Positions 791 to 53,813 of a stretch of DNA of 56,642 bases are shown here, one piece after another (the first letter of the stretch is position 1; the number at the start of each line of letters is the position of its first letter). Made by a program: the position numbers and the translations under genes. The notes under the pieces are model-generated. The model did no database searches. It was not told the DNA's origin and saw only the letters and a list, made by a program, of their open reading frames with translations. The stretch lies in the IMG/VR virus record IMGVR_UViG_2917461297_000001, positions 1 to 56,642 of that record, one strand, 5' to 3'. Source of the DNA: a virus (lineage: Duplodnaviria; Heunggongvirae; Uroviricota; Caudoviricetes).

Positions 791-2251
791 CTATCCATAA
801 GATTTAATATTTAAAGTACCCCATAATGTTTTGTCAACTTTAACTTTACCAGTTTTACCAATCTTACCAATTGGCATATAAAATTTACCAGCTGACGGAT
901 TAGTAGGGTACTCAAAGCGAATCCACCAATAACCGTCTTTCTTAATTAATCTATCAAACGGCACCCATTGGTTCGGGTAAATCCATGAATTTACATCTAC
1001 TTTAGCTGCATTTAATCCAACTGAACGTCTAACAACAATAGGCTGACTGTTACTAGCAAATGTAGTAAATCGACCTTTCCATGCCCATTCAGTTTTAGGT
1101 TTATTCCTATTATTAGCGGCAGGCGCTGGTTTCTTATTAGTCACTTTAGCGACAACTTTTTTCACTGCCACTTTTGCTTTATCTTTTGTTGGTTGTTTAA
1201 CAGACTCTAGTTTCCCACCATGAATATCCTCAGCAATACTACGAGTGTACGACTCAAGATTGTTAATAATGTTATTCATGTCTTTAACACTTGTGATGAA
1301 ACCAAGCTCTGCTAAACGATAGTTTACACCTTTATTTTTTGCAACGTTGACGTTTAATAAATTATCTCTAGGGTCAATATTTCTAATAGTGCCAACAAAA
1401 TGATAGATAGTGTTTTGAATAGCCTTATCTAGAGTGTCAGGTACTAATCCTAAACCAATAATAACATGACCACCACTAGCTTGAGCACCAGCGGCATCTA
1501 AATGGAATTCAGTTACATTATCGAAGCCTTGTCTAGCTACCCAATACATACCATAGTCTGAATAGTTACCTACCATTTCGCCATATCGAGTGTCTTGGAA
1601 TAAGTCTTGGTTCATTGTTTCTCCGCCATAAAGATGTACATCATGTCCAACTTTTCGTAAATGTTTTGCTACATTAGGCACAATATTTTTACGAATAAAG
1701 TCACGTTCATTATATCCATTAGCAGCAGCACCACTATCATTAGACCAATAACCTAAACCATGCCCAGCAACTAATAAGATTTTCTTTTTGGACAAGTTAC
1801 CACTTCCTTCGCTTTTATACTTAGGTCTTACAAATTTCATATCGTATTCATAACTATGTTTTCTTCGTGTTGTTACTTCGGTCTTATTCATTCCTCCACC
1901 AAACCAGTTTTGCTCTAGCAAGACGATGTAATCCAAAGTAGCTTCAATCACGATTCCTACATGTCCATATCCACCACCGAAACGACTACTGAATATTGCT
2001 AAATCACCTTTTTCAGCCAAGAACTCAGGCGTATTTGGATATATGTATGCTTCTTGAGTTAAGTCATTCCATCTCGGGTCAGGAATATCTTTTGCACCTT
2101 CACCTTTAAGACCATGACCAAAGATATAATTCCAGTAATAGTTAGCAACATCGAAACATTGCCAACCAGCAAAATTGTCAAAGTCTAAACCTTTGCCTTC
2201 TAAGCTAAGTGCATAATTTATTGCTTCTTGTTTTGTTTTAGAAGGAGCCAT
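791..2251 (-). CDS. Endolysin: CHAP + N-acetylmuramoyl-L-alanine amidase (Amidase_3) + SH3b cell-wall binding domain
   Basis: CHAP QCFD...YGHV..V..QNW; amidase LVAGHG...NERDF...EFHLDAAG...SGGHVI...YRLAELGFIT; SH3b-like C-terminus (DGYWWIRF); same layout as staphylococcal phage endolysins. Confidence 0.93.
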   Translation of the reverse strand: MAPSKTKQEAINYALSLEGKGLDFDNFAGWQCFDVANYYWNYIFGHGLKGEGAKDIPDPRWNDLTQEAYIYPNTPEFLAEKGDLAIFSSRFGGGYGHVGIVIEATLDYIVLLEQNWFGGGMNKTEVTTRRKHSYEYDMKFVRPKYKSEGSGNLSKKKILLVAGHGLGYWSNDSGAAANGYNERDFIRKNIVPNVAKHLRKVGHDVHLYGGETMNQDLFQDTRYGEMVGNYSDYGMYWVARQGFDNVTEFHLDAAGAQASGGHVIIGLGLVPDTLDKAIQNTIYHFVGTIRNIDPRDNLLNVNVAKNKGVNYRLAELGFITSVKDMNNIINNLESYTRSIAEDIHGGKLESVKQPTKDKAKVAVKKVVAKVTNKKPAPAANNRNKPKTEWAWKGRFTTFASNSQPIVVRRSVGLNAAKVDVNSWIYPNQWVPFDRLIKKDGYWWIRFEYPTNPSAGKFYMPIGKIGKTGKVKVDKTLWGTLNIKSYG

Positions 2252-5297: not shown

Positions 5298-5702
5298 TTA
5301 CATTAAACCAAAAGTCAATCGAACCCATGTCCAAACAAGTGTGCCTAATAATGAGAAACCCACACCGTAAATAGCCCATTTAAGTTTATTTCTTTCGTGC
5401 TTTTCGGATTCTTTATCTGCTTGTAGTAATTCAATTGAACTTTGTAATTTTTGTTGGGTAAGAGTGTTTGTAAAGATTGTTTCTTTAATAGTATCTACAC
5501 CATCAGCTATTTTGTCTGACTTTGTTGTTTGAGCATCGTTGTTTTTATCAATTTTGGTTTCAATCTCTTTGAACTTCTCATCAATCTTTCTCTCTATTTT
5601 TTCATCTTGCTCAGACATTTCCCTTTTCAAGTCTTTTAAATCAGCTTTTATATTTTTAACGTCGCTCTCAACGCTAGACACTCTGACCTCTAAACTTTGC
5701 AC
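5298..5702 (-). CDS. Coiled-coil protein with C-terminal transmembrane helix (XhlA/DUF2951-like lysis-associated protein)
   Basis: Heptad-rich N-terminus, WAIYGVGFSLLGTLVWTWV hydrophobic tail, AGGAGG RBS, position before holin. Confidence 0.65.
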   Translation of the reverse strand: MQSLEVRVSSVESDVKNIKADLKDLKREMSEQDEKIERKIDEKFKEIETKIDKNNDAQTTKSDKIADGVDTIKETIFTNTLTQQKLQSSIELLQADKESEKHERNKLKWAIYGVGFSLLGTLVWTWVRLTFGLM

Positions 5703-38915: not shown

Positions 38916-40727
38916 CTATACTATTGCTTTTGGTTTCCTCATCGAACCAAAGTTTCTAAAGTTTGTTGTTTTTGCAGTACGTTGTAGTTCACGTTCTAGT
39001 ACGGTAGCAAATTGGTTCCCATAAGATACAGAAGAGTATCTATCCTTACGTGCCGTTCCGTATGTAACAAGTTTGAAGGCTCCACCTTCCATATTAACTT
39101 GTTCTAAATTCATAGCTTCATTAATGAACATTTCTGTTTGTCTAAATGGATATTTCAATAATGCTTGAATATTATTCTTTAAATGAGAGAATTTTATTTT
39201 ATTATTGTTTCTCATTAGCTCCTCTGCTAATTCTTCTCTTATTAATAGTCTAAACTTACCACGCATAAAGTTATCCGCTAATAAGTTCGCCATCTCCATG
39301 TTTTTCTCATTAGTGGCATTAATTGTGTAGATTACCCGTGGTGCTTCAGGAAACTTTGATGTTGCTGCCAATTTATCGTCGTTATAAACATTTAGCGGCT
39401 CATATTCAATACCACGTTCAGTGTCTAATAATGGCACTCTCAAATTATCTAAAATACCATAACCAACGTTTCTAGAGTCAAGCACAATGTAATCACAATC
39501 AAAATCATCATAAAGTTGCCTAATTCTTATTGCTTGAGTTAGGAAGTCTTCTCCTTCCATATCTTGCATATAGACCAGTTGCCGTTCGTATTGTTTATTC
39601 TTAGGTACCAGCCTGATTAAGCTAAATACAGAAGCGTCATTTGAATTACCACCCATACGAGCAACGTCGACAGATAGTATTCTTTTTTCTTTTGGTTCTT
39701 TTTTAGGGTTTACTATGTTTGTGTGCTCAGTAACCTCTCTTGGATAGAAAGCCTCAGTAATTTTTCTGTTAATATCAATCTTGTTAAAATTAAAGAAGGC
39801 TGATTCTGATTCTCCCCACCAACGAGCTTCCATCTCCATAGCAAATTTCATCTTGGTAAAACCATCTGCTTGTGCTTCTGCTTTCATACTTTCATGTGAA
39901 TATAATTTTTCTTGCACGCCTGTATAATAGGGGACATGACAAACAAATGACCTTAATGCATCTTCACTCTTTTTCTTTAGCATATGTTTTGTGTAATTAA
40001 GTGTTGTTGTGTAACCCCAATGAGATTTATACCATGCTGATGATAAGTACATCTGCATGTTTTCTTCTCGTTTATAGTCTTTGTACTCCGGCTTAGTTAA
40101 GAACAATGGTTCACGTTGAGACGTCAACATCTTCTTAAATACCGAGTTAATAATATCAGGGTCAACTTTTACAAACTCATCGACCAAAAGTAAATTAGCA
40201 CGATAGCCACGAGCATTGTCATTTGAAGCTGCAACTCTAATCCAACTACCATTTTGGAATACGATAATTGGCTTTTGGTTACCAGTCTTTAATTCAGCTA
40301 TTTCTCTTTGTAGTAGTGGAGCATTAGGTAAAATCTCATTCTCAATCTTCTCAAGAATCAAGATACCTTGTGACTTAGTAGGGGCTGTAACAACTATCTT
40401 TGTACCCGGAAAAAGTACACATCTAGTTACGCAATACACCGCAGATAAAAAGGACTTCCCGATGCCCCTCGAGGCAATAAATACAAAGTAATGATGTTGT
40501 ATCATCGCCCACAAAAGTACGCATTGAAACGGTTTCAGATTAATGTTCAAAAATTCCAACACAAATCTATGCGGGTTCTCTCTGTAATAAGCTATCCATA
40601 TCGCTATATTCTTCATAGCTGATACAGACTTAGATTCTGTTTTTCTATGATTACGTCTTAACTTGAATAAATTTACTTTAGAGTGATATTGACTTCTATG
40701 AGTACCATTACTTACACTAAAACCCAT
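38916..40727 (-). CDS. terL: Terminase large subunit
   Basis: Walker A ASRGIGKS, Walker B LLLVDEF, RNase H-like nuclease SVDVARMG...ND and KDRYS. Confidence 0.93.
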   Translation of the reverse strand: MGFSVSNGTHRSQYHSKVNLFKLRRNHRKTESKSVSAMKNIAIWIAYYRENPHRFVLEFLNINLKPFQCVLLWAMIQHHYFVFIASRGIGKSFLSAVYCVTRCVLFPGTKIVVTAPTKSQGILILEKIENEILPNAPLLQREIAELKTGNQKPIIVFQNGSWIRVAASNDNARGYRANLLLVDEFVKVDPDIINSVFKKMLTSQREPLFLTKPEYKDYKREENMQMYLSSAWYKSHWGYTTTLNYTKHMLKKKSEDALRSFVCHVPYYTGVQEKLYSHESMKAEAQADGFTKMKFAMEMEARWWGESESAFFNFNKIDINRKITEAFYPREVTEHTNIVNPKKEPKEKRILSVDVARMGGNSNDASVFSLIRLVPKNKQYERQLVYMQDMEGEDFLTQAIRIRQLYDDFDCDYIVLDSRNVGYGILDNLRVPLLDTERGIEYEPLNVYNDDKLAATSKFPEAPRVIYTINATNEKNMEMANLLADNFMRGKFRLLIREELAEELMRNNNKIKFSHLKNNIQALLKYPFRQTEMFINEAMNLEQVNMEGGAFKLVTYGTARKDRYSSVSYGNQFATVLERELQRTAKTTNFRNFGSMRKPKAIV

Positions 40728-41611
40728 TATTTTTTATTACTCCCTAATAACTCGTCCTCAGAGATACCGTATTTCTCCACATGTTCTTGGTATTCTTCTT
40801 CATAAGGGTTTTCAGCTTCTAGTGAAGTCAACATAGGAGATAAGAAATTATTTCTCATATATTTTTCAATATTATCAATATCCTTAAACTCTGGTAGTAC
40901 TTCTGGTACTGGCTTCTCGTTCTCCCAACGTTTTACCATGACCCCAAATGTTTCATTCTCATTGGTTTTGCTCGCTTTTTCTTGAGAAGGAGCGATACCA
41001 GCAGTCCTCATTAAGTCCATAATCATTTTAGTTTCATCTTTTGTGCTAACTGACTTTATACGTTTCTTCCTAATATCGAGTTCTAATTGACAAATCTGAG
41101 TGATAATATTTTGGAATGTTGGCGTATCGACATCGTAAGCGTTACAGTAGTCTTCATATCTGCTTATTAAAAACAAATATTCATCTTCGACATATTCTTC
41201 TCCCCAATACAATTGACAATCTCTTAACTCTTCGGGGGTTAGTTTTTCAATCGTATCCTCTGTAAGTTTTGCTTCATATGCGTTAAAGAATCTATCTGAT
41301 TCAATAAACAACTCCTTATTTCGTGTAGGATTTTTTCTTACTAAGTATTTGTATCTTTGTCGTCCTACTTTATTAAATTCTTCTTCTTTGTACGGTCGAT
41401 TAACACCCATAAGTACGTTTATAAAGTTTTTATATCCCTCAACAGGCTCATTTACTAGCTCTTCTATACAACGCTTACACACTGGATAATATCCATCTGG
41501 GAAAGCGGCGTTTTTACCATTTATTGATATAAAATTAGTATCTCTAACTAGGTTTCTGTTGCAGTGAACACATGTTTTAATCTTTTCAACTTTGGCATCT
41601 CTTATTGCCAC
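40727..41611 (-). CDS. Putative terminase small subunit with N-terminal C4 zinc finger
   Basis: CVHC...CKRC; WGE.Y...EY.FL..RY; overlaps the TerL start. Confidence 0.65.
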   Translation of the reverse strand: MAIRDAKVEKIKTCVHCNRNLVRDTNFISINGKNAAFPDGYYPVCKRCIEELVNEPVEGYKNFINVLMGVNRPYKEEEFNKVGRQRYKYLVRKNPTRNKELFIESDRFFNAYEAKLTEDTIEKLTPEELRDCQLYWGEEYVEDEYLFLISRYEDYCNAYDVDTPTFQNIITQICQLELDIRKKRIKSVSTKDETKMIMDLMRTAGIAPSQEKASKTNENETFGVMVKRWENEKPVPEVLPEFKDIDNIEKYMRNNFLSPMLTSLEAENPYEEEYQEHVEKYGISEDELLGSNKK

Positions 41612-41629
41612 ATAAACACCACCTAATTA

Positions 41630-41714
41630 TTTTTTGTTCGGTGGGCGATGGTAGGAGAGAGGTAAGGGGAGACCATCGTCCAACCAACAAAAAACCGACC
41701 TTGTATAAGTCGGT
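41630..41714 (-). promoter_or_regulatory. Terminator plus long hairpin with C/U-rich loop in the leader of TerS
   Basis: Minus strand ACCGAC-TTATACAAG-GTCGGT-TTTTTG, then TTTTTTGTT..GGACGATGGT-[CTCCCCTTACCTCTCTCCT]-ACCATCGCCC..AACAAAAAA. Confidence 0.65.
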
Positions 41715-41744
41715 AAAATGAAAGGGGAATTATCATGGAAAGAA

Positions 41745-42900
41745 AAAGAAACGAGAGCGTTTTTAAACACTCAAAACTGTACCTAAAGAATTAAAATCCC
41801 CTAGACACAGTTTTCAATATTTAAAGATGATACTATGAAACCAGTAACTTCAAGTATCATAATGAATGTAAGTTTTTAAACAACTGGAGAGTTCGCTAAA
41901 TGCGTCCATTAGCAAACTAAGCTATCTCGATACGTCTACCTTAATAGCCAAACGAATTAACTCAGCTCTATAATTCTCATCACAGAACCTACAAACATAT
42001 AGTTTATTTCCTTGTGTTATCCATTGTTTTGTATTTAGAACGATTATAAGGAAGTGACTATTTTCACAAGTCAAAACTCTTTACAATCGACATAGACAGC
42101 TAGTCTTGCTGTGTCTTGACTAAGTGTACTAAACATAAAATTTTATGGATATGTGCCATGATAACCTCGCCATTTAATATTCAGACGAGATGAGCATTAG
42201 CTAGATGACTTATCACAACCCTTTGTTCTAGCACTGATTATCGGTTCAACGCTTAAAACCTTTGCGAACCCTAAACCATAAGTAAAGGATAATCAGGTGT
42301 TTAGTTGAATTATGGGAACACACCAAGTTATACGGTAAGCATCAACTCCCTGTATGTTATAACTCAGACAACACCTAAACTTGAGTTATACACCAAGCGT
42401 CCGATAGAATTTTTCCTCCATACTATCCTTAGGAATCACTTTTTACTCTCTGATGCTTCTTCTGAGTAAAAGCTGACCAACTTATTTTCGCTCTCAAGGA
42501 ACTACCTAATTTTGAGCTATCCCTGTTTGGAAAAAGTAGGCATGGTTCTCCTATTTTTATTTATAAATGATTTTAGACACAGATGTAAAAGGGTATTTTT
42601 ACACGGAATTAGTGACAGATTTTAAATCAGATGAGTAAGCAAAACCCTGCACGATTTCTCCTAAAATTAGACACTAACTGGAAGATGTCTCCAGTGAGAC
42701 CAACAGTCAGATATATAGCTTCTGCCGAGCAACATGTGGTGTCTCTCACATGTCCAACCTAATGTTAAATTACTATCTCAAGCCTGTAACCAGACAGCAC
42801 TCCCATAGGTATTAATGTTCGATTGAACGGGAGGGTTTTTCGTACGTCAGGCGTTATGTAATACCCCCACATCAGAGCGTATCTGCCTAAAAAGGAGTGG
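41745..42900 (-). ncRNA. Candidate large structured ncRNA (GOLLD/ROOL-like or new class); ends approximate
   Basis: No ORF of 60 aa or more between 41612 and 42926; more than 12 stem-loops including nested ones; ends at a hairpin plus pyrimidine run (41772-41738); strand inferred from flanking operon and terminator polarity. Confidence 0.7.
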
Positions 42901-42926
42901 AGGCGTTGTCGTTAATTATGTATAAG

Positions 42927-44135
42927 TTAGTTAAAGTTAATTAGCTTAACCGAATGATTAATACCACCAAGTTTCGATTTCTCAAATGTAACCATCTTTT
43001 GCCCAGCACGACCACCAAATCGTCCTGAGGCACTGTAAGAGTCATGCCCAATTCCGCTTGGATTAACAATAACAGTCGTGATACCAAAATTTTTCTCAAA
43101 AGAATGGTGTACATGACCGATAAAAATCCATTGAGGAACATATGATAACATTTGTGCTAATTTATCTGAGCCATTAGCAATCTTGTCTAAATCACCATGT
43201 GCAAACACTACACTCTCTCCTAGAACATTAGCTTCCACTAATCCGTCTCTGTCCTCATGAAATGTGATATTCTTATAGTTTGCTAATCTAGCTTGAAGGT
43301 GCCAAATTATTAACTTTTCAAAGTTCTCTTCATGACTTCTAACTGCGTCTTTCTGTGGGATTAACCTTCCGTGATTCCCAACAACTGAATAAACTGAAAC
43401 ATCTGTTACAACTTTAGCAACCTCAGATACAAACTCAGTAAGTAACTCACATAAAATCATTAATTGTTGTACAGCATCTTCTGAAGCGGCTACACGGCTT
43501 GATATGTGAATATTTCCACCGATACCGTCTCCTAAATGCGCTAAATGTACTTTGTTATGTCCATGTGTCTTAATCTCATTCAGCACTTCTGAAAGATAGT
43601 AACGGACTCGCTCTTTCGCAATTTTAACGTTATATTTACCAAAACGACCGTCATACTCTGCGCCAATATGCCAATCTGACATGAGAACAATTAGCTCTTT
43701 CTCTTGTCTCTCAGCGGTCGGAAAAGTAGGGGGTGTTGGTATTGCTGGTAAAGCTGAAATATTGCTAAAAATCTCGTCCTTAATGTGTTCAAACCTTCCT
43801 GAGAAATCTAATAACTTTCTATATTCTCGTCGTTGGTCTTGCAACATTTTTGTGATAGCACGATTCTTTTCATTCATCTTGAGTTGTTCTTTAGTTAATT
43901 CCTCAAGAAATTCATCAGGTAGGGAAGCTGTGTGTTGTTTCTTGAACATTGATTCCCAAACATTCTTGAAGATTTGATATTCTTTTCTGTACTTTGATTC
44001 GTCATAATCAGTACCATTTTCGTGGTTCAGGAAATCAGCAATCTGTTGATTACTGAGCCCCAAACTCTCTTTATTTTCGTACAAACGGTACTGATATTCG
44101 GCAAATGATTCTCCGTCCTTACGAAACATGTTCAT
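42927..44135 (-). CDS. Calcineurin-like metallophosphoesterase with N-terminal HTH/coiled coil (YonJ-like)
   Basis: SDWHIG, HLGDGI, VGNHGR, FAHGD, IGHVHH metal-binding motifs. Confidence 0.88.
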   Translation of the reverse strand: MNMFRKDGESFAEYQYRLYENKESLGLSNQQIADFLNHENGTDYDESKYRKEYQIFKNVWESMFKKQHTASLPDEFLEELTKEQLKMNEKNRAITKMLQDQRREYRKLLDFSGRFEHIKDEIFSNISALPAIPTPPTFPTAERQEKELIVLMSDWHIGAEYDGRFGKYNVKIAKERVRYYLSEVLNEIKTHGHNKVHLAHLGDGIGGNIHISSRVAASEDAVQQLMILCELLTEFVSEVAKVVTDVSVYSVVGNHGRLIPQKDAVRSHEENFEKLIIWHLQARLANYKNITFHEDRDGLVEANVLGESVVFAHGDLDKIANGSDKLAQMLSYVPQWIFIGHVHHSFEKNFGITTVIVNPSGIGHDSYSASGRFGGRAGQKMVTFEKSKLGGINHSVKLINFN

Positions 44136-44137
44136 GA

Positions 44138-44323
44138 TTATTCATTCCCGTGAACTTCAGTGTCTTCTTTAATCGAGAATGAAACATATTTATCTTCAAA
44201 TCGAGCGATAATTTCTGATAACTTGAAAGTCGATTCTGTATCTTTAGTAACTTCTGTGATAGTGTCGTTTTCTAAATCAATAACTGCGTTCTTGAATGAA
44301 ACTGTATTTGTAAGTTTAGCCAT
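44138..44323 (-). CDS. YonK-like small protein
   Basis: MAK..NTVSFKNAVID....ITEVTKD.E..F.L..I...F..K.VS.SIKE pattern, between the HU-like gene and the phosphoesterase as in SPbeta. Confidence 0.75.
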   Translation of the reverse strand: MAKLTNTVSFKNAVIDLENDTITEVTKDTESTFKLSEIIARFEDKYVSFSIKEDTEVHGNE

Positions 44324-44343: not shown

Positions 44344-44679
44344 TTATTCAACTGGTTTTAAAGTTTCTTCTTTTAAGCGACGTTTAAGTGGTGCTGAAAA
44401 CTGTAAATGTACTCGTTTATGTGCTCCAGTTACCCAATCCTTACCGAATAAACTAGAATGTCCTGAACGTTGTGGTACATCAATAACTTTAAATTGTCCA
44501 AATGAAAAACCGAAAGAATCATATTCTTTTGAGTCCGCAGCTAAAATAGCTTCCTCAATCGTATTTTCAAAAGCCGTAATAATTTTACTTGTTTGGTCTA
44601 AACTTAGTTTTACTCCTAAATCTAAACATTGTTCTTGTAATTCCTTAATAATTAATTTCTTTGATAAGCGTACTCCCAT
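44344..44679 (-). CDS. HU/IHF-like DNA-binding protein (YonN-like position), divergent
   Basis: SFGQFKV..VPQRSG......WVTGAHKRV..QFSAPLKR aligns to the HU beta-arm. Confidence 0.75.
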   Translation of the reverse strand: MGVRLSKKLIIKELQEQCLDLGVKLSLDQTSKIITAFENTIEEAILAADSKEYDSFGFSFGQFKVIDVPQRSGHSSLFGKDWVTGAHKRVHLQFSAPLKRRLKEETLKPVE

Positions 44680-44731
44680 TATAAATCTCTCCTATAACTT
44701 TTATTATTTTTTGACTGGCTTAAAAAACTAT

Positions 44732-44860
44732 AAAAACAGAGGTTACTCTGCCAATCAAGGGGTAACCTCCTTGATTATGTATAATAATTTATTTTTATTA
44801 AGGTTAATATCAGTGAATCTCAACGATTGTGATACCCCTTCACTATATATTGTCTACAAA
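44732..44860 (-). promoter_or_regulatory. Putative late-operon promoter/leader with overlapping hairpins and terminator
   Basis: Minus strand ATATATAGTGAAGGGG (about 44851-44835), then AATCAAGG/CCTTGATT and GAGGTTAC/GTAACCTC stems overlapping, followed by TGTTTTT. Confidence 0.5.
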
Positions 44861-44899
44861 AGTAGGTAAAATTGCAATTTTTCACCAAAACTTTTTAAA

Positions 44900-46378
44900 T
44901 CATGACTTTTCACATGACTTGCAAACTGACCTTAAGCCTAGGTAACCACTACTATTTTTCATAAAATATCGATTGTCGACGGCTAATTTAACTTCACCAC
45001 ACGAATTGCAAGTTTTATATTTTCCTTTGCGTCGATGAATCCAAATCCAATCTTCTAATTGCTTTTCATGTGTCTCAACTAATATTTTTGGTAATTGCTT
45101 ATTGATAATTCTTGACAATTGGTATTTTTCATATTCTAACTTGTAATCTTCTCTTAATGCTTCTTGTATTTCTTCTAATTTGGTAACACCTGAATTCAAC
45201 ATCAAGTCGACAATATGAGCTTCTTCTTTACTCCACGATGTTTTCTCTGCCAAATCTTCAAAAGTTCTAAGTAACGCCCACATGTTTGTATTAACTTTTG
45301 GCTTATACTTTTCGTATAGTTCTGAGTAATTATATAGGAGCACAGAGTAAACTTCTGCGTCTCTGAGGCTCAAACAATTCCAAGCATCATCTGGAATTAC
45401 TTCATCAATTGAGATACTAGGTTGAAAGTGGATTACTTTTCTTAAAACCTTTAGTGCATCTCGCATTTCACCTTTCAAATTTGAAATAACTTTTGCTCTG
45501 TTTGGAGAAAAAGGCTTATCTTCAAGTTGCTGAATTTCAGCTATGTATTGCTTCATTGTAGAATAAGCAAGCTCTTTATAATTAACAGGTTCTTTATCAT
45601 AAAACGGAATTTCGTTTGGTTTACTAGGTGAAAAACGTTCCCAAAACGCTTCCATACTCTCATCAAACTTGCCTTTCTCCATTTGTCTGTCAACCCTTGT
45701 GTAATTAACTACGTAATCTGGTTTAACAACCTGTGATTCATCGTCTTCAGTATTTAACACTAAATATTGTGGAGGTAAACTTTTTAAACGCTTAACTTTC
45801 ATATACGGTGTATCTTTCTTTTTGTGTTTAGCATCAAATAATTTATTTTTATTCTTTTCAGTTTTCTTTTTACTTTCTAGTTGCGCAATTTCTTTCTTTA
45901 ACTTAATATGCTCCTCTTCTTGCTCTTTATTATCAAACTTGCTAAATAAGATGTAGTCAGCAATCTTGTCAAGGGTTTTCGTGAATCCATTCTCCTCTGA
46001 CAGCGGGGTAGTTGTTTTCTTGATTTGTTGAGAGATAAATTTATGGTCACTAACAATCTCAACCATCATGCTTTCATCAATTCCTCTAGCGATTGCTTCT
46101 GTGCGTTCCTCACCATATCTCAAAGCGTAATTACAACAATTCATAAATTGTCTCCATACTTGTCTTCTCTTATTATCACGCTCAATTTTCCATGGAATTA
46201 AAACAACTGGTTCTGATTTCTTCTTCTCGAAGCTAAGCCAACAGTCCCAACCTAAACGTTTAATCTTAATATCCTTAGTAGACATCATATATTCATTTTT
46301 TTCTAATTTCTTTAAATCCTCGCATTTATATCCTAGCTCTTCAGCTAAACTTTCAATATTTTCTAAACTAATAATCAT
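44900..46378 (-). CDS. Putative late transcription regulator: sigma-region-4-like HTH plus C-terminal C4 zinc finger
   Basis: WSKEEAHIVDLMLNSGVTKLEEIQEAL...YQLSRIINKQLPKI resembles sigma region 4; CNSC...CKSC; AAGGAG RBS; consensus SigA promoter upstream. Confidence 0.6.
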   Translation of the reverse strand: MIISLENIESLAEELGYKCEDLKKLEKNEYMMSTKDIKIKRLGWDCWLSFEKKKSEPVVLIPWKIERDNKRRQVWRQFMNCCNYALRYGEERTEAIARGIDESMMVEIVSDHKFISQQIKKTTTPLSEENGFTKTLDKIADYILFSKFDNKEQEEEHIKLKKEIAQLESKKKTEKNKNKLFDAKHKKKDTPYMKVKRLKSLPPQYLVLNTEDDESQVVKPDYVVNYTRVDRQMEKGKFDESMEAFWERFSPSKPNEIPFYDKEPVNYKELAYSTMKQYIAEIQQLEDKPFSPNRAKVISNLKGEMRDALKVLRKVIHFQPSISIDEVIPDDAWNCLSLRDAEVYSVLLYNYSELYEKYKPKVNTNMWALLRTFEDLAEKTSWSKEEAHIVDLMLNSGVTKLEEIQEALREDYKLEYEKYQLSRIINKQLPKILVETHEKQLEDWIWIHRRKGKYKTCNSCGEVKLAVDNRYFMKNSSGYLGLRSVCKSCEKS

Positions 46379-46421: not shown

Positions 46422-46472
46422 ATTATAAAATAATTTATTTCTATTGTCAACACATTTCTTTGGTGTTATAAT
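46422..46472. promoter_or_regulatory. Back-to-back SigA promoters sharing their -35 region
   Basis: Leftward TTGACA (46450-46445)-17-TATAAT (46427-46422); rightward TTGTCA (46444-46449)-17-TATAAT (46467-46472). Confidence 0.85.
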
Positions 46473-46514
46473 TTATTTCTGTAAGGCAAATAAAAATGAA
46501 ATGAGGAAGATTAC

Positions 46515-48788
46515 ATGAAAAAAACTTTTAGAGAGTTTGAAGAAGAATTAACAGTAACTAAGGAGCTGTTTTACAATGAGGGGAGCATGTATGGTGCATA
46601 TGGTTTTAAATTCGCTGATGAGATTAATCCAGAAGTAAAATTGCATTCTACATATAAGAATTTTACAATCGTTGGAAATACACCGGCGTTAATTGAAGGT
46701 AATTCATATAAGGTGAGATTTATTGAAGGCTTTGATGAAAGAAGAAATGTTGACGTTTACAATTTTGTCGAAGTAAAGTCTGATGGTTTGAAAGACAGAA
46801 AGTCTCAAGAAGAATTCTTATATCAAATCTTAACTGAAAAGCAAGCGAGAGATATTTTATCATCTTTTCCAAACGAGAACATTATTGAGGATATTATTAA
46901 TAAGAAAATCAACTTAACTACGGTTCATGGCATTCAAGAAGCAACCGCAGCAAAGATAATCGCAAAACTATTGAACTACAATGAATATAGCAAAGCGATT
47001 GTAGCGCTTTCTCCTTTAGGTGCCGGCATTAAAAGTGTCATCAAATTATCGGAACACTTTGGTAGTCCAGAGAAAGTCGTGCAGATTGTTAAAAACGACG
47101 TCTATAAATTAACTGAGGTATCTGGTTTTGGGTTCAAAACTGTAGACCAATATGCTTTAAAACAAGGTGTATCTCCTAAAGATAAACGACGTATTGTGGC
47201 AGGTGCATTGTACGTTATTGAGCAAATCGTTGGTTACGGAGACACAAAAATTCCAATCGATAAGTTTGAAAAAGATTTATGTGACATTTTGGGTATTGAT
47301 GAGGTCGATGATAAAGTATTTGAAGAGATTATTAACCACAATGCTATTTACTATAACGAAGGATTTATTACTTTACATACATACAGAAATGAAGAAAAGC
47401 AAATTGTTGGTCACTTAAGAAGATTACGAGACGGTTTTATCCCTAATAATATTGATGAAACGATTGTAGAAAAGTTAGAAGAGGAACAAGGTTTTAAGTT
47501 CAACAAAGAACAACGAGAAGGAATTGAGAAAGCTATAACAAATGGGATTTTTGTCCTAGACGGTAAAGCGGGTTCGGGGAAAACAAGTTTACTAAGAGCC
47601 GCTGTTGAAAGTATCGAAAATAACCACGCTGCATGTAGCTTATCAGGTAAAGCGGCTAATGTACTTTCTATGAACGGATTAAATGCTAGTACAATTCACA
47701 GATTGCTAAAATTCGAACCTACAACTGGTGGCTTTTTTCATAATGAACTCAACCCGTTACCATCAGCTGTCTACATTTTAGATGAGGCATCTATGGTTAA
47801 TAACAAACTATTTTTAGATTTAATCAGTGCAATTCCATCAGGTTCGCCACTCATTATTGTCGGTGATAGTGGACAATTACCAGCAATTGGACACGGTGCA
47901 GTATTTGATTATTTATTAAGTTCTACTGAGTTTGCTCACGTAACATTGAAAGAAGTTCATAGACAAGCGCAAGATTCAGGTACTTTGAGTGCTGCCAACA
48001 TGGTTCGTGAAGGAAAACAAATTATTAAATATAACGAAAGTGGTAGAAAAATCTCGGGAGCTAGTAATGATTTCTATGAGAATTATTATCGAGATAAGTC
48101 TTTAATCTTGAATGACGTACTTCAAACAGCACAACGCTATGCTGATAATCCGGAAATGAGAAATGAAGATTTTCAAGTAATTGTCGGATTGAAAGAAAAG
48201 GGTGACTATTCAGTCCTAAATATGAATAAGCATTTACAAGAAATTTTTAACCCAGCTTCTAGTGGAAAAGAAGAGATTAAAGGTTTAAAGCATACGTTTA
48301 GAAAAGGTGACAGAGTTATTCAACAAGGTAACAACTATGGTGTAACAATTATGAGTCAATCTAATTTTGTAATGTATAGTAACAAGTTTATTGATAGAGA
48401 AGAAGCTGAACACGCTTCTGCTGCTGTGTTTAACGGCACATTTGGCACGATTTTAGAATGTGTAGAAGGCGTGGGTATGTTGATTAAGTTTGAAGGAATT
48501 GACGAGCCAGTGTTCTACGCTAAGAATGAAAATGATAATGAAATCGGTGTATTAGATTTAGGTTACGCTATTAGTGTGCATCGTTCTCAAGGGTCAGGTT
48601 TTAAAACACTGCTAGTCATTGTAACGTTTAACGAATTTGCATTATTGAGTAGACAATTTTTGTATACTGCTTTAACTCGAACAATTGATAAATGTTTATT
48701 GTTTGCTGAATCAGGAGCAATTGTACAAGCAATTAAGACAGACAAAGGTAAAAGCAGAAAATGTTTTATGGGTGAATTTTTGAAATAA
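46515..48788 (+). CDS. recD2: RecD2-like SF1B helicase
   Basis: N-terminal OB-like region, HhH motifs (VHGIQ, VSGFGFKTVD), Walker A GKAGSGKT, ILDEASM, GDSGQLPAIG, HRQA, LGYAISVHRSQGSGF, LYTALTR. Confidence 0.92.
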   Translation: MKKTFREFEEELTVTKELFYNEGSMYGAYGFKFADEINPEVKLHSTYKNFTIVGNTPALIEGNSYKVRFIEGFDERRNVDVYNFVEVKSDGLKDRKSQEEFLYQILTEKQARDILSSFPNENIIEDIINKKINLTTVHGIQEATAAKIIAKLLNYNEYSKAIVALSPLGAGIKSVIKLSEHFGSPEKVVQIVKNDVYKLTEVSGFGFKTVDQYALKQGVSPKDKRRIVAGALYVIEQIVGYGDTKIPIDKFEKDLCDILGIDEVDDKVFEEIINHNAIYYNEGFITLHTYRNEEKQIVGHLRRLRDGFIPNNIDETIVEKLEEEQGFKFNKEQREGIEKAITNGIFVLDGKAGSGKTSLLRAAVESIENNHAACSLSGKAANVLSMNGLNASTIHRLLKFEPTTGGFFHNELNPLPSAVYILDEASMVNNKLFLDLISAIPSGSPLIIVGDSGQLPAIGHGAVFDYLLSSTEFAHVTLKEVHRQAQDSGTLSAANMVREGKQIIKYNESGRKISGASNDFYENYYRDKSLILNDVLQTAQRYADNPEMRNEDFQVIVGLKEKGDYSVLNMNKHLQEIFNPASSGKEEIKGLKHTFRKGDRVIQQGNNYGVTIMSQSNFVMYSNKFIDREEAEHASAAVFNGTFGTILECVEGVGMLIKFEGIDEPVFYAKNENDNEIGVLDLGYAISVHRSQGSGFKTLLVIVTFNEFALLSRQFLYTALTRTIDKCLLFAESGAIVQAIKTDKGKSRKCFMGEFLK

Positions 48789-50476: not shown

Positions 50477-50509
50477 AGGAAGATTTTTTTGTTCATAAGA
50501 AATAAATTA

Positions 50510-50538
50510 TTGAACTTGATAAAGAAATGGTGTAAAAT
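50510..50538 (+). promoter_or_regulatory. SigA-type promoter
   Basis: TTGAAC (50510-15), 17 bp, TAAAAT (50533-38). Confidence 0.55.
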
Positions 50539-53764: not shown

Positions 53765-53813
53765 ATAGATATAAGGTTAAGAAATAAATTATAAATAAAA
53801 GAGAGGTTTCATA

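Follow-up and report, generated by a model that had tools for sequence, protein, structure and literature searches.

The SPbeta-like phages of Firmicutes are large and temperate, and some of them carry resistance genes (PMC8407400); in SPbeta itself, the phage RNA polymerase YonO starts the late operon at a single site that lies upstream of yonK and of an unannotated RNA (PMC5467207). How does a phage of this group turn on its late genes when yonO is missing? The question is raised by a stretch of 56,642 nucleotides (IMG/VR record IMGVR_UViG_2917461297_000001; hereafter the window), the left arm of an SPbeta-like prophage of ~120 kb whose host, of Staphylococcus type, has a complete genome of 2.8 Mb. 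The late genes of the prophage form a co-directional minus-strand arm of ~45 kb, and this arm is headed by a gene for a protein of 492 residues (44900..46378, minus strand). An initial annotation of the window noted that the gene stands where SPbeta has yonO and proposed that this lineage uses a different late switch, either an atypical sigma factor or activator or an antiterminator like Q of phage lambda.

We tentatively favour the reading that the 492-residue protein is made early and would serve as an initiation factor for the late genes, working with the host RNA polymerase at a single-copy intergenic site. Within this reading, which is built on sequence comparison and predicted structure, we give an activator or a factor that replaces sigma region 4 more weight than a complete sigma factor, since nothing like a sigma-2 domain can be detected. 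A role as late switch is supported by the position of the gene in the slot of yonO, the lack of co-occurrence between its family and YonO, the absence of a phage polymerase, a consensus sigma-A promoter and a helix-turn-helix (HTH) fold.

The YonO slot in a phage without YonO

Searches with tblastn found the family of the protein (phrog_5767) in 20 phage records and YonO in 40, and no record held both. In the complete host genome, neither the YonO protein as query (E<=10) nor the YonO profile phrog_8308 gave a match; the positive control of the profile search was found in B. subtilis. The beta-prime catalytic domain (PF00623) matched host rpoC and, in addition, one weak, stop-containing stretch inside a tail gene. 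Among 88 open reading frames (ORFs) of at least 100 residues that cover the remainder of the prophage plus its right flank (~56,000-132,400 in window coordinates), no polymerase appeared. The T7-type polymerase model PF00940 had no match in the genome either, but its control matched nowhere, so that this search is uninformative. As for the 492-residue protein, it contains neither a D.DGD nor a D.D.D motif, where YonO has DNDGD at residue 535; its best BLASTP alignment with YonO is at noise level (E 0.78), and phrog_8308 is absent from its PHROG matches. By these searches, the T7-type one set aside, the prophage carries no RNA polymerase of its own. The initial annotation is borne out in that the protein has no polymerase motif of the DFDGD type, and the condition that it named as refuting its view, a yonO elsewhere, did not turn up in the genome by protein query or profile. 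Its wider claim of a different late switch stands as far as YonO is missing from the genome and any other RNA polymerase from the prophage; sigma factor, activator and Q-like protein, between which it left the choice, are all candidates here.

The slot can be compared directly with SPbetaL1, in which the order is YonP, YonO (838 residues), YonN (an HU protein; PF00216, E 5e-33), YonK, YonJ and terminase. In the window, the ORF of 492 residues begins with the ATG at 46378, preceded by AAGGAG 9 nt upstream, and is followed on the same strand by genes for an HU-like DNA-binding protein that is the counterpart of YonN (44344..44679, minus strand; PF00216, E 7.7e-7; phrog_379), a YonK-family protein (44138..44323, minus strand; PF09642, E 4.3e-21) and a YonJ-like metallophosphoesterase/exonuclease (42927..44135, minus strand; phrog_284, E 1e-67; 40% identity to YonJ of the SPbeta group). 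A non-coding gap of 1.3 kb separates these from the packaging module, which opens with a YonG-like gene (40727..41611, minus strand; phrog_3314; annotated 'YonG-like' in phage Sundance) and continues with the terminase large subunit (38916..40727, minus strand; phrog_2, phrog_26582), portal and tail genes and, listed last, the endolysin (791..2251, minus strand). On the other side of the 492-residue gene, a divergent gene for a RecD2-like helicase (46515..48788, plus strand; AAA_30, E 6.5e-33; HHH_RecD2; phrog_4412) opens the early arm. Judged by the order in SPbetaL1, the equivalence of the two slots upstream of the HU-like gene, which the initial annotation had pointed out, is real.

The arrangement is not confined to this prophage. 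The module of RecD2, phrog_5767 family, HU, in some cases PhoH, YonK, YonJ, YonG and terminase large subunit is kept in six phage groups; its carriers are Staphylococcus phage SPbeta-like, the Mammaliicoccus phages phi36 and phi6255, Geobacillus virus E3 and Brevibacillus phage Sundance, and part of it is present in Enterococcus phage VRE9_3. The family gene thus occupies the yonO slot in phages of Staphylococcus, Mammaliicoccus, Geobacillus, Brevibacillus and Enterococcus.

Helix-turn-helix, zinc ribbon and the sigma-factor label

What kind of protein sits in the slot? An AlphaFold2 model of the full length has a predicted local distance difference test (pLDDT) score of 74, and a model of the C-terminal half built with 114 sequences reaches 87.6. 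The latter consists of a helical hairpin (residues 267-313), five helices (341-450) and a small zinc ribbon (452-491). The long hairpin, with helices 267-286 and 292-313 (45440..45580, minus strand), marks the start of the conserved core and has structure matches to generic coiled coils only. The HTH comprises four helices of residues ~360-441 (45056..45301, minus strand). The zinc ribbon lies at the C-terminus (residues ~452-491; 44906..45025, minus strand), and the terminal CxxC...CxxC seen by the initial annotation corresponds to C457, C460, C486 and C489, which are invariant in all 36 relatives of a first alignment and in all 114 of a second. Its strands lie at 454-456, 463-465, 472-474 and 482-486 in the full-length model, the C-terminal model has three to four short strands there with pLDDT >90, phrog_5558 (Lar-like) matches weakly (E 7.6e-4), and BFVD returns zinc-ribbon matches to HNH nucleases and PhnA. 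The predicted structures support a four-helix HTH of the sigma-4/LuxR type followed by a zinc ribbon.

Superposition with VIA-align relates the HTH to region 4 of several sigma factors, namely S. aureus SigB (8x6g_H; Z 6.6, 70 aligned residues, root-mean-square deviation (rmsd) 3.1), M. tuberculosis SigL (6dv9_F; Z 6.6, 72 aligned, rmsd 2.8), F. nucleatum sigma-H (3mzy; Z 6.6, 71 aligned, rmsd 2.9), WhiG (7lq4_A; Z 5.3, 68 aligned, rmsd 3.3) and B. subtilis SigA (9a58_A; Z 5.2, 70 aligned, rmsd 3.3). The LuxR-type HTH of DesR fits comparably well over a shorter stretch (4ldz_B; Z 6.4, 49 aligned, rmsd 1.2). All these values stay below Z 8 and are tied with unrelated helical rows, so that they show a four-helix HTH of the sigma-4/LuxR type and no more. 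Foldseek searches of the PDB with the whole protein and with its C-terminal half gave nothing at E<=0.001. Judged by title and chain length, roughly 8 of the 46 leading entries in one search and 9 of the 49 in the other are sigma chains, at E 0.3-2. In BFVD, true family members come first (E 8e-12 to 1e-6), followed by small phage proteins named as extracytoplasmic function (ECF) sigma, Sigma70 or sigma-70 region 4 proteins (E 0.1-0.6). The GerE domain (PF00196) matches one of the 114 relatives (E 0.0037). A sequence-profile search of the PDB with the protein gave no match at E<=10, and lambda Q, RinA-type and sigma-2 folds are not among the structure matches listed.

The same fold would also suit a protein that binds DNA for a purpose other than transcription, such as at the replication origin, in recombination or in starting packaging, together with its HU-like, RecD2-like and YonJ-like neighbours. 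These neighbours are indeed proteins of DNA metabolism, and the HTH can be superimposed equally on that of a small terminase (4xvn_A, Z 6.4) and on ArgR (Z 7.0). The zinc ribbon resembles those of HNH nucleases, and a single name among the source names of ten clusters, given to a metagenomic relative, reads 'restriction endonuclease'. No nuclease or ATPase domain was detected in the 492-residue protein with Pfam, PHROGs or NCBIfam, however, and both the position at the head of the virion arm and the mutual exclusion with YonO point to transcription, which makes a role of this kind improbable.

A more specific proposal is already present in the databases. Residues 71-492 of the protein align with positions 14-392 of the 393-position profile phrog_5767 (E 5.9e-74), which is labelled 'sigma factor', and in RefSeq, too, members of the family bear this name. 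Taken literally, the label would make the protein an alternative sigma factor in full, one that takes the place of sigma-A in the holoenzyme. To compare the family with sigma factors, profiles were built from a host sigma-H-like protein (15 sequences) and from SigB (30 sequences) and aligned by hhalign. The family core aligned with sigma-H-like at 116-156 against 136-176 (P 0.019) and with SigB at 141-179 against 220-250, in the register of region 4.2 (P 0.079). The full-length family gave one collinear alignment of 142 columns with sigma-H-like, 240-409 against 32-176 (P 0.0095), and a match of 382-432 to SigB 207-250 (P 0.024). The control, sigma-H-like against SigB, reached P 5e-11 with a probability of 97%. 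The collinear alignment, the sigma-4-like fold and the small phage sigma models of BFVD are what speaks for a complete sigma factor, besides the label.

The remaining evidence goes the other way, and the P-values are nine orders weaker than that of the control. The Pfam models of sigma regions 2 and 4 match neither the protein at E<=1 nor any of the 114 relatives at E<=0.01. In six-frame searches of the genome, region 2 (PF04542) recovered four host sigma genes and four weak matches at host loci (E 0.14-0.45), and none in the prophage; region 4 (PF04545 and related models) found host sigma genes and nothing in the prophage. No sigma-2 superposition is among the matches listed, where the N-terminal half was barely tested as a separate domain. 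Pfam and NCBIfam give nothing meaningful for the protein, the one NCBIfam match being irrelevant (E 0.11), and no RinA or ArpU family of either collection matches. Given the lack of Pfam regions 2 and 4 in the prophage and the marginal hhalign values, the family is not a demonstrable member of the sigma-70 family and carries at most a distant HTH of the sigma-4 type. A complete sigma factor is accordingly rated as very unlikely. Of the claims made at the outset, the sigma-region-4-like segment survives as a modest likeness at the level of the fold (Z 5.2-6.6 over ~70 residues) that no Pfam sigma model picks up, and the atypical sigma factor proves to be a database label already, with no region 2 and marginal profile values to its name.

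How far does the label reach? Literature searches turned up no experimental source for it, and, judged by sequence and model, we regard 'sigma factor' in PHROGs and RefSeq as a weakly founded annotation that has not been earned. GenBank depositors have named family members 'hypothetical', 'luxR family' and 'major head-like', and 29 of 30 neighbours in the ESM Atlas are unnamed, one of the 30 carrying GerE. The protein has 46 close cluster representatives, and a profile of 36 relatives collects, at E<=0.001, 1495 representatives of clusters made at 50% identity, 260 of them at E<=1e-30. Common to the family is a core of residues ~253-492, and many members are just 340-390 residues long. The closest relatives are labelled Staphylococcus pseudintermedius, S. 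hyicus and S. agnetis. True members with the same neighbours are found in Staphylococcus phage SPbeta-like (NC_029119) and the Mammaliicoccus phages phi36, phi116, phi127 and phi6255, at 47-50% identity over 97-100% of the length. Of 113 genomes from the bacterial family, a whole-genome search found two with the gene, one of them being that of the window, and a peptide-pattern search for relatives in species genomes confirmed none.

Zinc-binding motifs were also considered on the YonO side. The C-terminus of YonO reads CxxC-12-CxxC (L002:6490-6600, YonO residues ~797-823), and its second CxxC, K-L-C-D-K-C-S-K-E-K-L, resembles the first CxxC of the family, K-x-C-x-x-C-x-x-x-K-L, without reaching significance. 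Homology of the family to this C-terminal extension was rejected, as hhalign gave P 0.087-0.14 and aligned only the 12-residue K-x-C-x-x-C-x-x-x-K-L stretch. The idea that YonP acts as a zinc-ribbon partner of YonO in SPbeta was ruled out as well, since YonP contains no cysteine.

Promoter, repressor and candidate target sites

When would the protein be made, and where would it act? The perfect sigma-A-type promoter reported by the initial annotation, TTGACA-17-TATAAT, is found at 46422..46450 on the minus strand, and its -35 and -10 boxes are conserved in five related phages. It is the sole perfect match in the window (0.04 expected; present in 4 of 100 shuffles), six occur in the 2.8 Mb of the genome, and it is the one consensus promoter of the late arm, located at its head. 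The RecD2-like helicase gene has a promoter that diverges from it and overlaps it, a TG-extended TTGTCA-17-TATAAT at 46444..46472 on the plus strand. Across 46422-46472 the two promoters thus stand back to back, with their -35 boxes overlapping on opposite strands, and one bound protein could govern both. The family gene of Enterococcus phage VRE9_3 also has a perfect TTGACA-17-TATAAT (L022 about 5591-5619), there following a terminator-like hairpin.

The spacer of the promoter contains the 13-mer AGAAATAAATTAT (46430..46442, minus strand), and a second copy (46468..46480, minus strand) overlaps the -10 box of the helicase promoter, so that the -35 box of the 492-residue gene is flanked on both sides. 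Both copies are kept in the five phages, in which the proteins are just 47-60% identical. Exact copies number seven in the 122.5-kb prophage and none in the other 2.68 Mb; apart from the two at the promoter, they lie at 50498-50510 and 53780-53792 and at window-equivalent positions 59458, 100830 and 109549. By eye, the exact copies are in or beside sigma-A-like promoters. Allowing up to one mismatch raises the number to 23, where 0.55 would be expected, and every one of these copies runs in the direction of the local genes.

SPbeta offers a parallel. Its yonP-yonO promoter, TAGACA-17-TATAAT, holds a 15-mer in the spacer that recurs about 13 times in the phage (up to two mismatches). In SPbeta, the master repressor MrpR is described as having the repeated element SPBRE for its operator, and one of the MrpR peaks in chromatin affinity purification sequencing (ChAP-seq) is the yonP promoter region (PMC10516654). 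We infer that the 15-mer is SPBRE, and AGAAATAAATTAT is likely its counterpart. The prophage encodes a tyrosine-recombinase-like homologue of MrpR/YopR (L003:6165-7178 = window-equivalent 62128-63141) with 31% identity to the copy of phi3T (E 4e-28) and a match to a gene annotated 'yopR: prophage repressor' (E 5e-6). An exact copy of AGAAATAAATTAT stands ahead of another recombinase-like gene (L003:3569-4621). From the MrpR homologue, the 13-mer in the spacer and the analogy with SPbeta it follows that the 492-residue gene is probably shut off in the lysogen and, once the prophage is induced, expressed with the earliest genes.

The 13-mer could instead be the target of the protein itself, which would then act as an early regulator of lysis and lysogeny (a co-repressor, an anti-repressor or an activator of early or middle genes) and not as the late switch. 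Two copies at its own promoter, the accumulation and uniform orientation of the element in the prophage and its conservation across phages, like that of the protein, speak for such a role. The analogous element of SPbeta is bound by MrpR, however, and a homologue of this repressor is present here; moreover, such a role explains neither the exclusion with YonO nor the place that the gene takes in front of the late arm. We therefore hold this alternative to be highly improbable.

In the initiation-factor reading that we prefer, events would unfold as follows. In the lysogen, a MrpR/YopR-like repressor acting on the 13-mer in the spacer would keep the promoter of the 492-residue gene off. Upon induction, the protein would be made early, would bind DNA by its HTH and zinc ribbon at a conserved single-copy site within 44680-44899 and would direct the host RNA polymerase to start the late transcript from there. 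The candidate site is the 220-bp intergenic region before the HU-like gene (44680..44899, minus strand), conserved in an alignment of five phages. Two blocks in it, AATCGTTGAGATT (44816-44828) and CCTTGATTGG (44751-44760), are invariant in the five phages and single-copy in the prophage, which fits the description of the SPbeta late operon as starting at one site upstream of yonK (PMC5467207). A terminator-like hairpin lies in the same region at 44735-44752. The region further contains an inverted repeat, TTGATTGG...CCAATCAA, conserved in the five phages, and a similar ACCCTTGAT...TGG string occurs between yonO and yonN of SPbetaL1. Geobacillus E3, Sundance and VRE9_3 showed no shared block.

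Several observations weigh against this reading. The combination of an HTH and a zinc ribbon is a generic one among DNA-binding proteins, and the argument from position is circumstantial. The intergenic region has no conserved sigma-A-type boxes in the alignment of five phages, and, with its conserved blocks present once in the prophage, a repeated late-promoter motif was not found. The N-terminal ~250 residues have no recognised fold. Added to these are points already raised for the sigma identity: every fold match lies below Z 8 in the company of unrelated helical rows, the Pfam sigma regions 2 and 4 are missing from the protein and its relatives, and the profile comparison with sigma factors gives P of 0.0095-0.079 against the 5e-11 of the control.

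The 1.3-kb non-coding gap before the first packaging gene (41612..42926, minus strand) is a further place where late transcription might be controlled. It contains blocks conserved in five phages and no credible ORF, Rfam match or tRNA; the window as a whole is likewise without a credible Rfam match or tRNA. The last 130 nt of the gap hold an invariant TTCCATGA, a conserved hairpin with a U-run (41694-41714) directly before the packaging genes, a stem and then the ribosome-binding site of the first packaging gene. The stem of ~20 bp has a CU-rich loop and four to five compensatory pairs among five sequences. In the Mammaliicoccus relatives the gap measures 2.6 kb and includes tRNA genes for Tyr, Pro and Asn (L018:12154-12318, L019:12038-12344); their deposited annotation packs it with dozens of ORFs of 30-50 residues, apparently over-called.

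These hairpins bear on the third option of the initial annotation, a processive antiterminator of the Q type. Such a protein would bind the 13-mer in the spacer, load onto the host RNA polymerase and read through the hairpins before the HU and packaging genes, and the whole late arm would be one transcript from 46450..46422 with a built-in delay. Q of phage lambda has a four-helix HTH body and a zinc ribbon, a single molecule of it binds a 13-bp site, and the ribbon contacts RNA polymerase (PMC9388147). The 13-mer, conserved in five phages, occupies a place like that of the Q-binding element (QBE), terminator-like structures stand at 44735-44752 and ahead of the packaging genes, and the sole consensus promoter of the late arm is at its head. 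YonO, which holds the slot in SPbeta, is described as unusually processive (PMC5467207). On the other hand, the zinc ribbon is C-terminal here and not inserted in the HTH domain, and in size the protein exceeds Q more than twofold. Five early promoters on the other arm have the 13-mer as well, and the analogue of this element in SPbeta is the operator of MrpR, whose homologue is encoded here. The likeness to Q first suggested holds for the domain composition, but no Q structure is among the fold matches listed and no PDB sequence matches at E<=10. All in all, we consider an antiterminator unlikely, but a serious rival.

Comparison with known late switches

A sigma-like function for this family is not a new idea, since it is the existing database label, and between the 492-residue protein and the 'sigma factor' of Staphylococcus phage SPbeta-like (NC_029119) and Mammaliicoccus phages phi36, phi116, phi127 and phi6255 there is no difference in kind. 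In the available text of the articles searched (PMC5467207, PMC10516654, PMC8270828, PMC8407400, PMC9388147), nothing was found on the family or on the late switch of SPbeta-like phages that have no YonO. Showing what the family does would correct or justify the label across 1495 clusters and would reveal by what switch a whole group of phages turns its late genes on.

Of the established systems, lambda Q has a four-helix HTH domain and a zinc ribbon (PMC9388147), as is predicted for the protein. Each of the two genes also adjoins a promoter whose spacer contains, or lies close to, an asymmetric 13-bp element, and a hairpin and U-run follow downstream. They are unlike in that no match in sequence or fold connects them, the ribbon is terminal instead of inserted, the 492-residue protein is much larger and antitermination is putative here.

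Gram-positive siphophages have sigma-like late activators of their own, those of the RinA/ArpU/Ltr type, and RinA-type activators are several times smaller than 492 residues. With these activators and with sigma-70 factors, the protein has in common a predicted HTH of the sigma-4/LuxR type, a gene that heads the packaging and virion genes and a host-type promoter. It differs from them in having no region 2 and no Pfam or NCBIfam match to sigma, RinA or ArpU, and in its additional invariant zinc ribbon and N-terminal part of ~250 residues.

A bolder synthesis would combine features of these systems. It holds that a factor lacking sigma-2 but equipped with a zinc ribbon and an HTH of the sigma-4 type binds an asymmetric 13-bp site in its own host-type promoter and rides the host RNA polymerase through 45 kb and several terminators, as the host-polymerase equivalent of YonO, the two being interchangeable cassettes in one phage supergroup. 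We judge this to be quite unlikely as it stands.

The closest comparison in genomic terms is YonO itself. The 492-residue protein has no homology to it (BLASTP E 0.78; hhalign P 0.087-0.14), lacks the DxDGD motif, is half the size and is predicted to be a DNA-binding protein and not a polymerase. Nevertheless, both are encoded in the same slot, each by the large gene that opens the late arm ahead of the HU-like YonN, YonK and YonJ, the promoter of each carries a phage-specific repeated element, and both proteins end in CxxC...CxxC. A demonstrated function of the family would show how late switches based on a phage polymerase and on the host polymerase can replace each other in one genomic slot.

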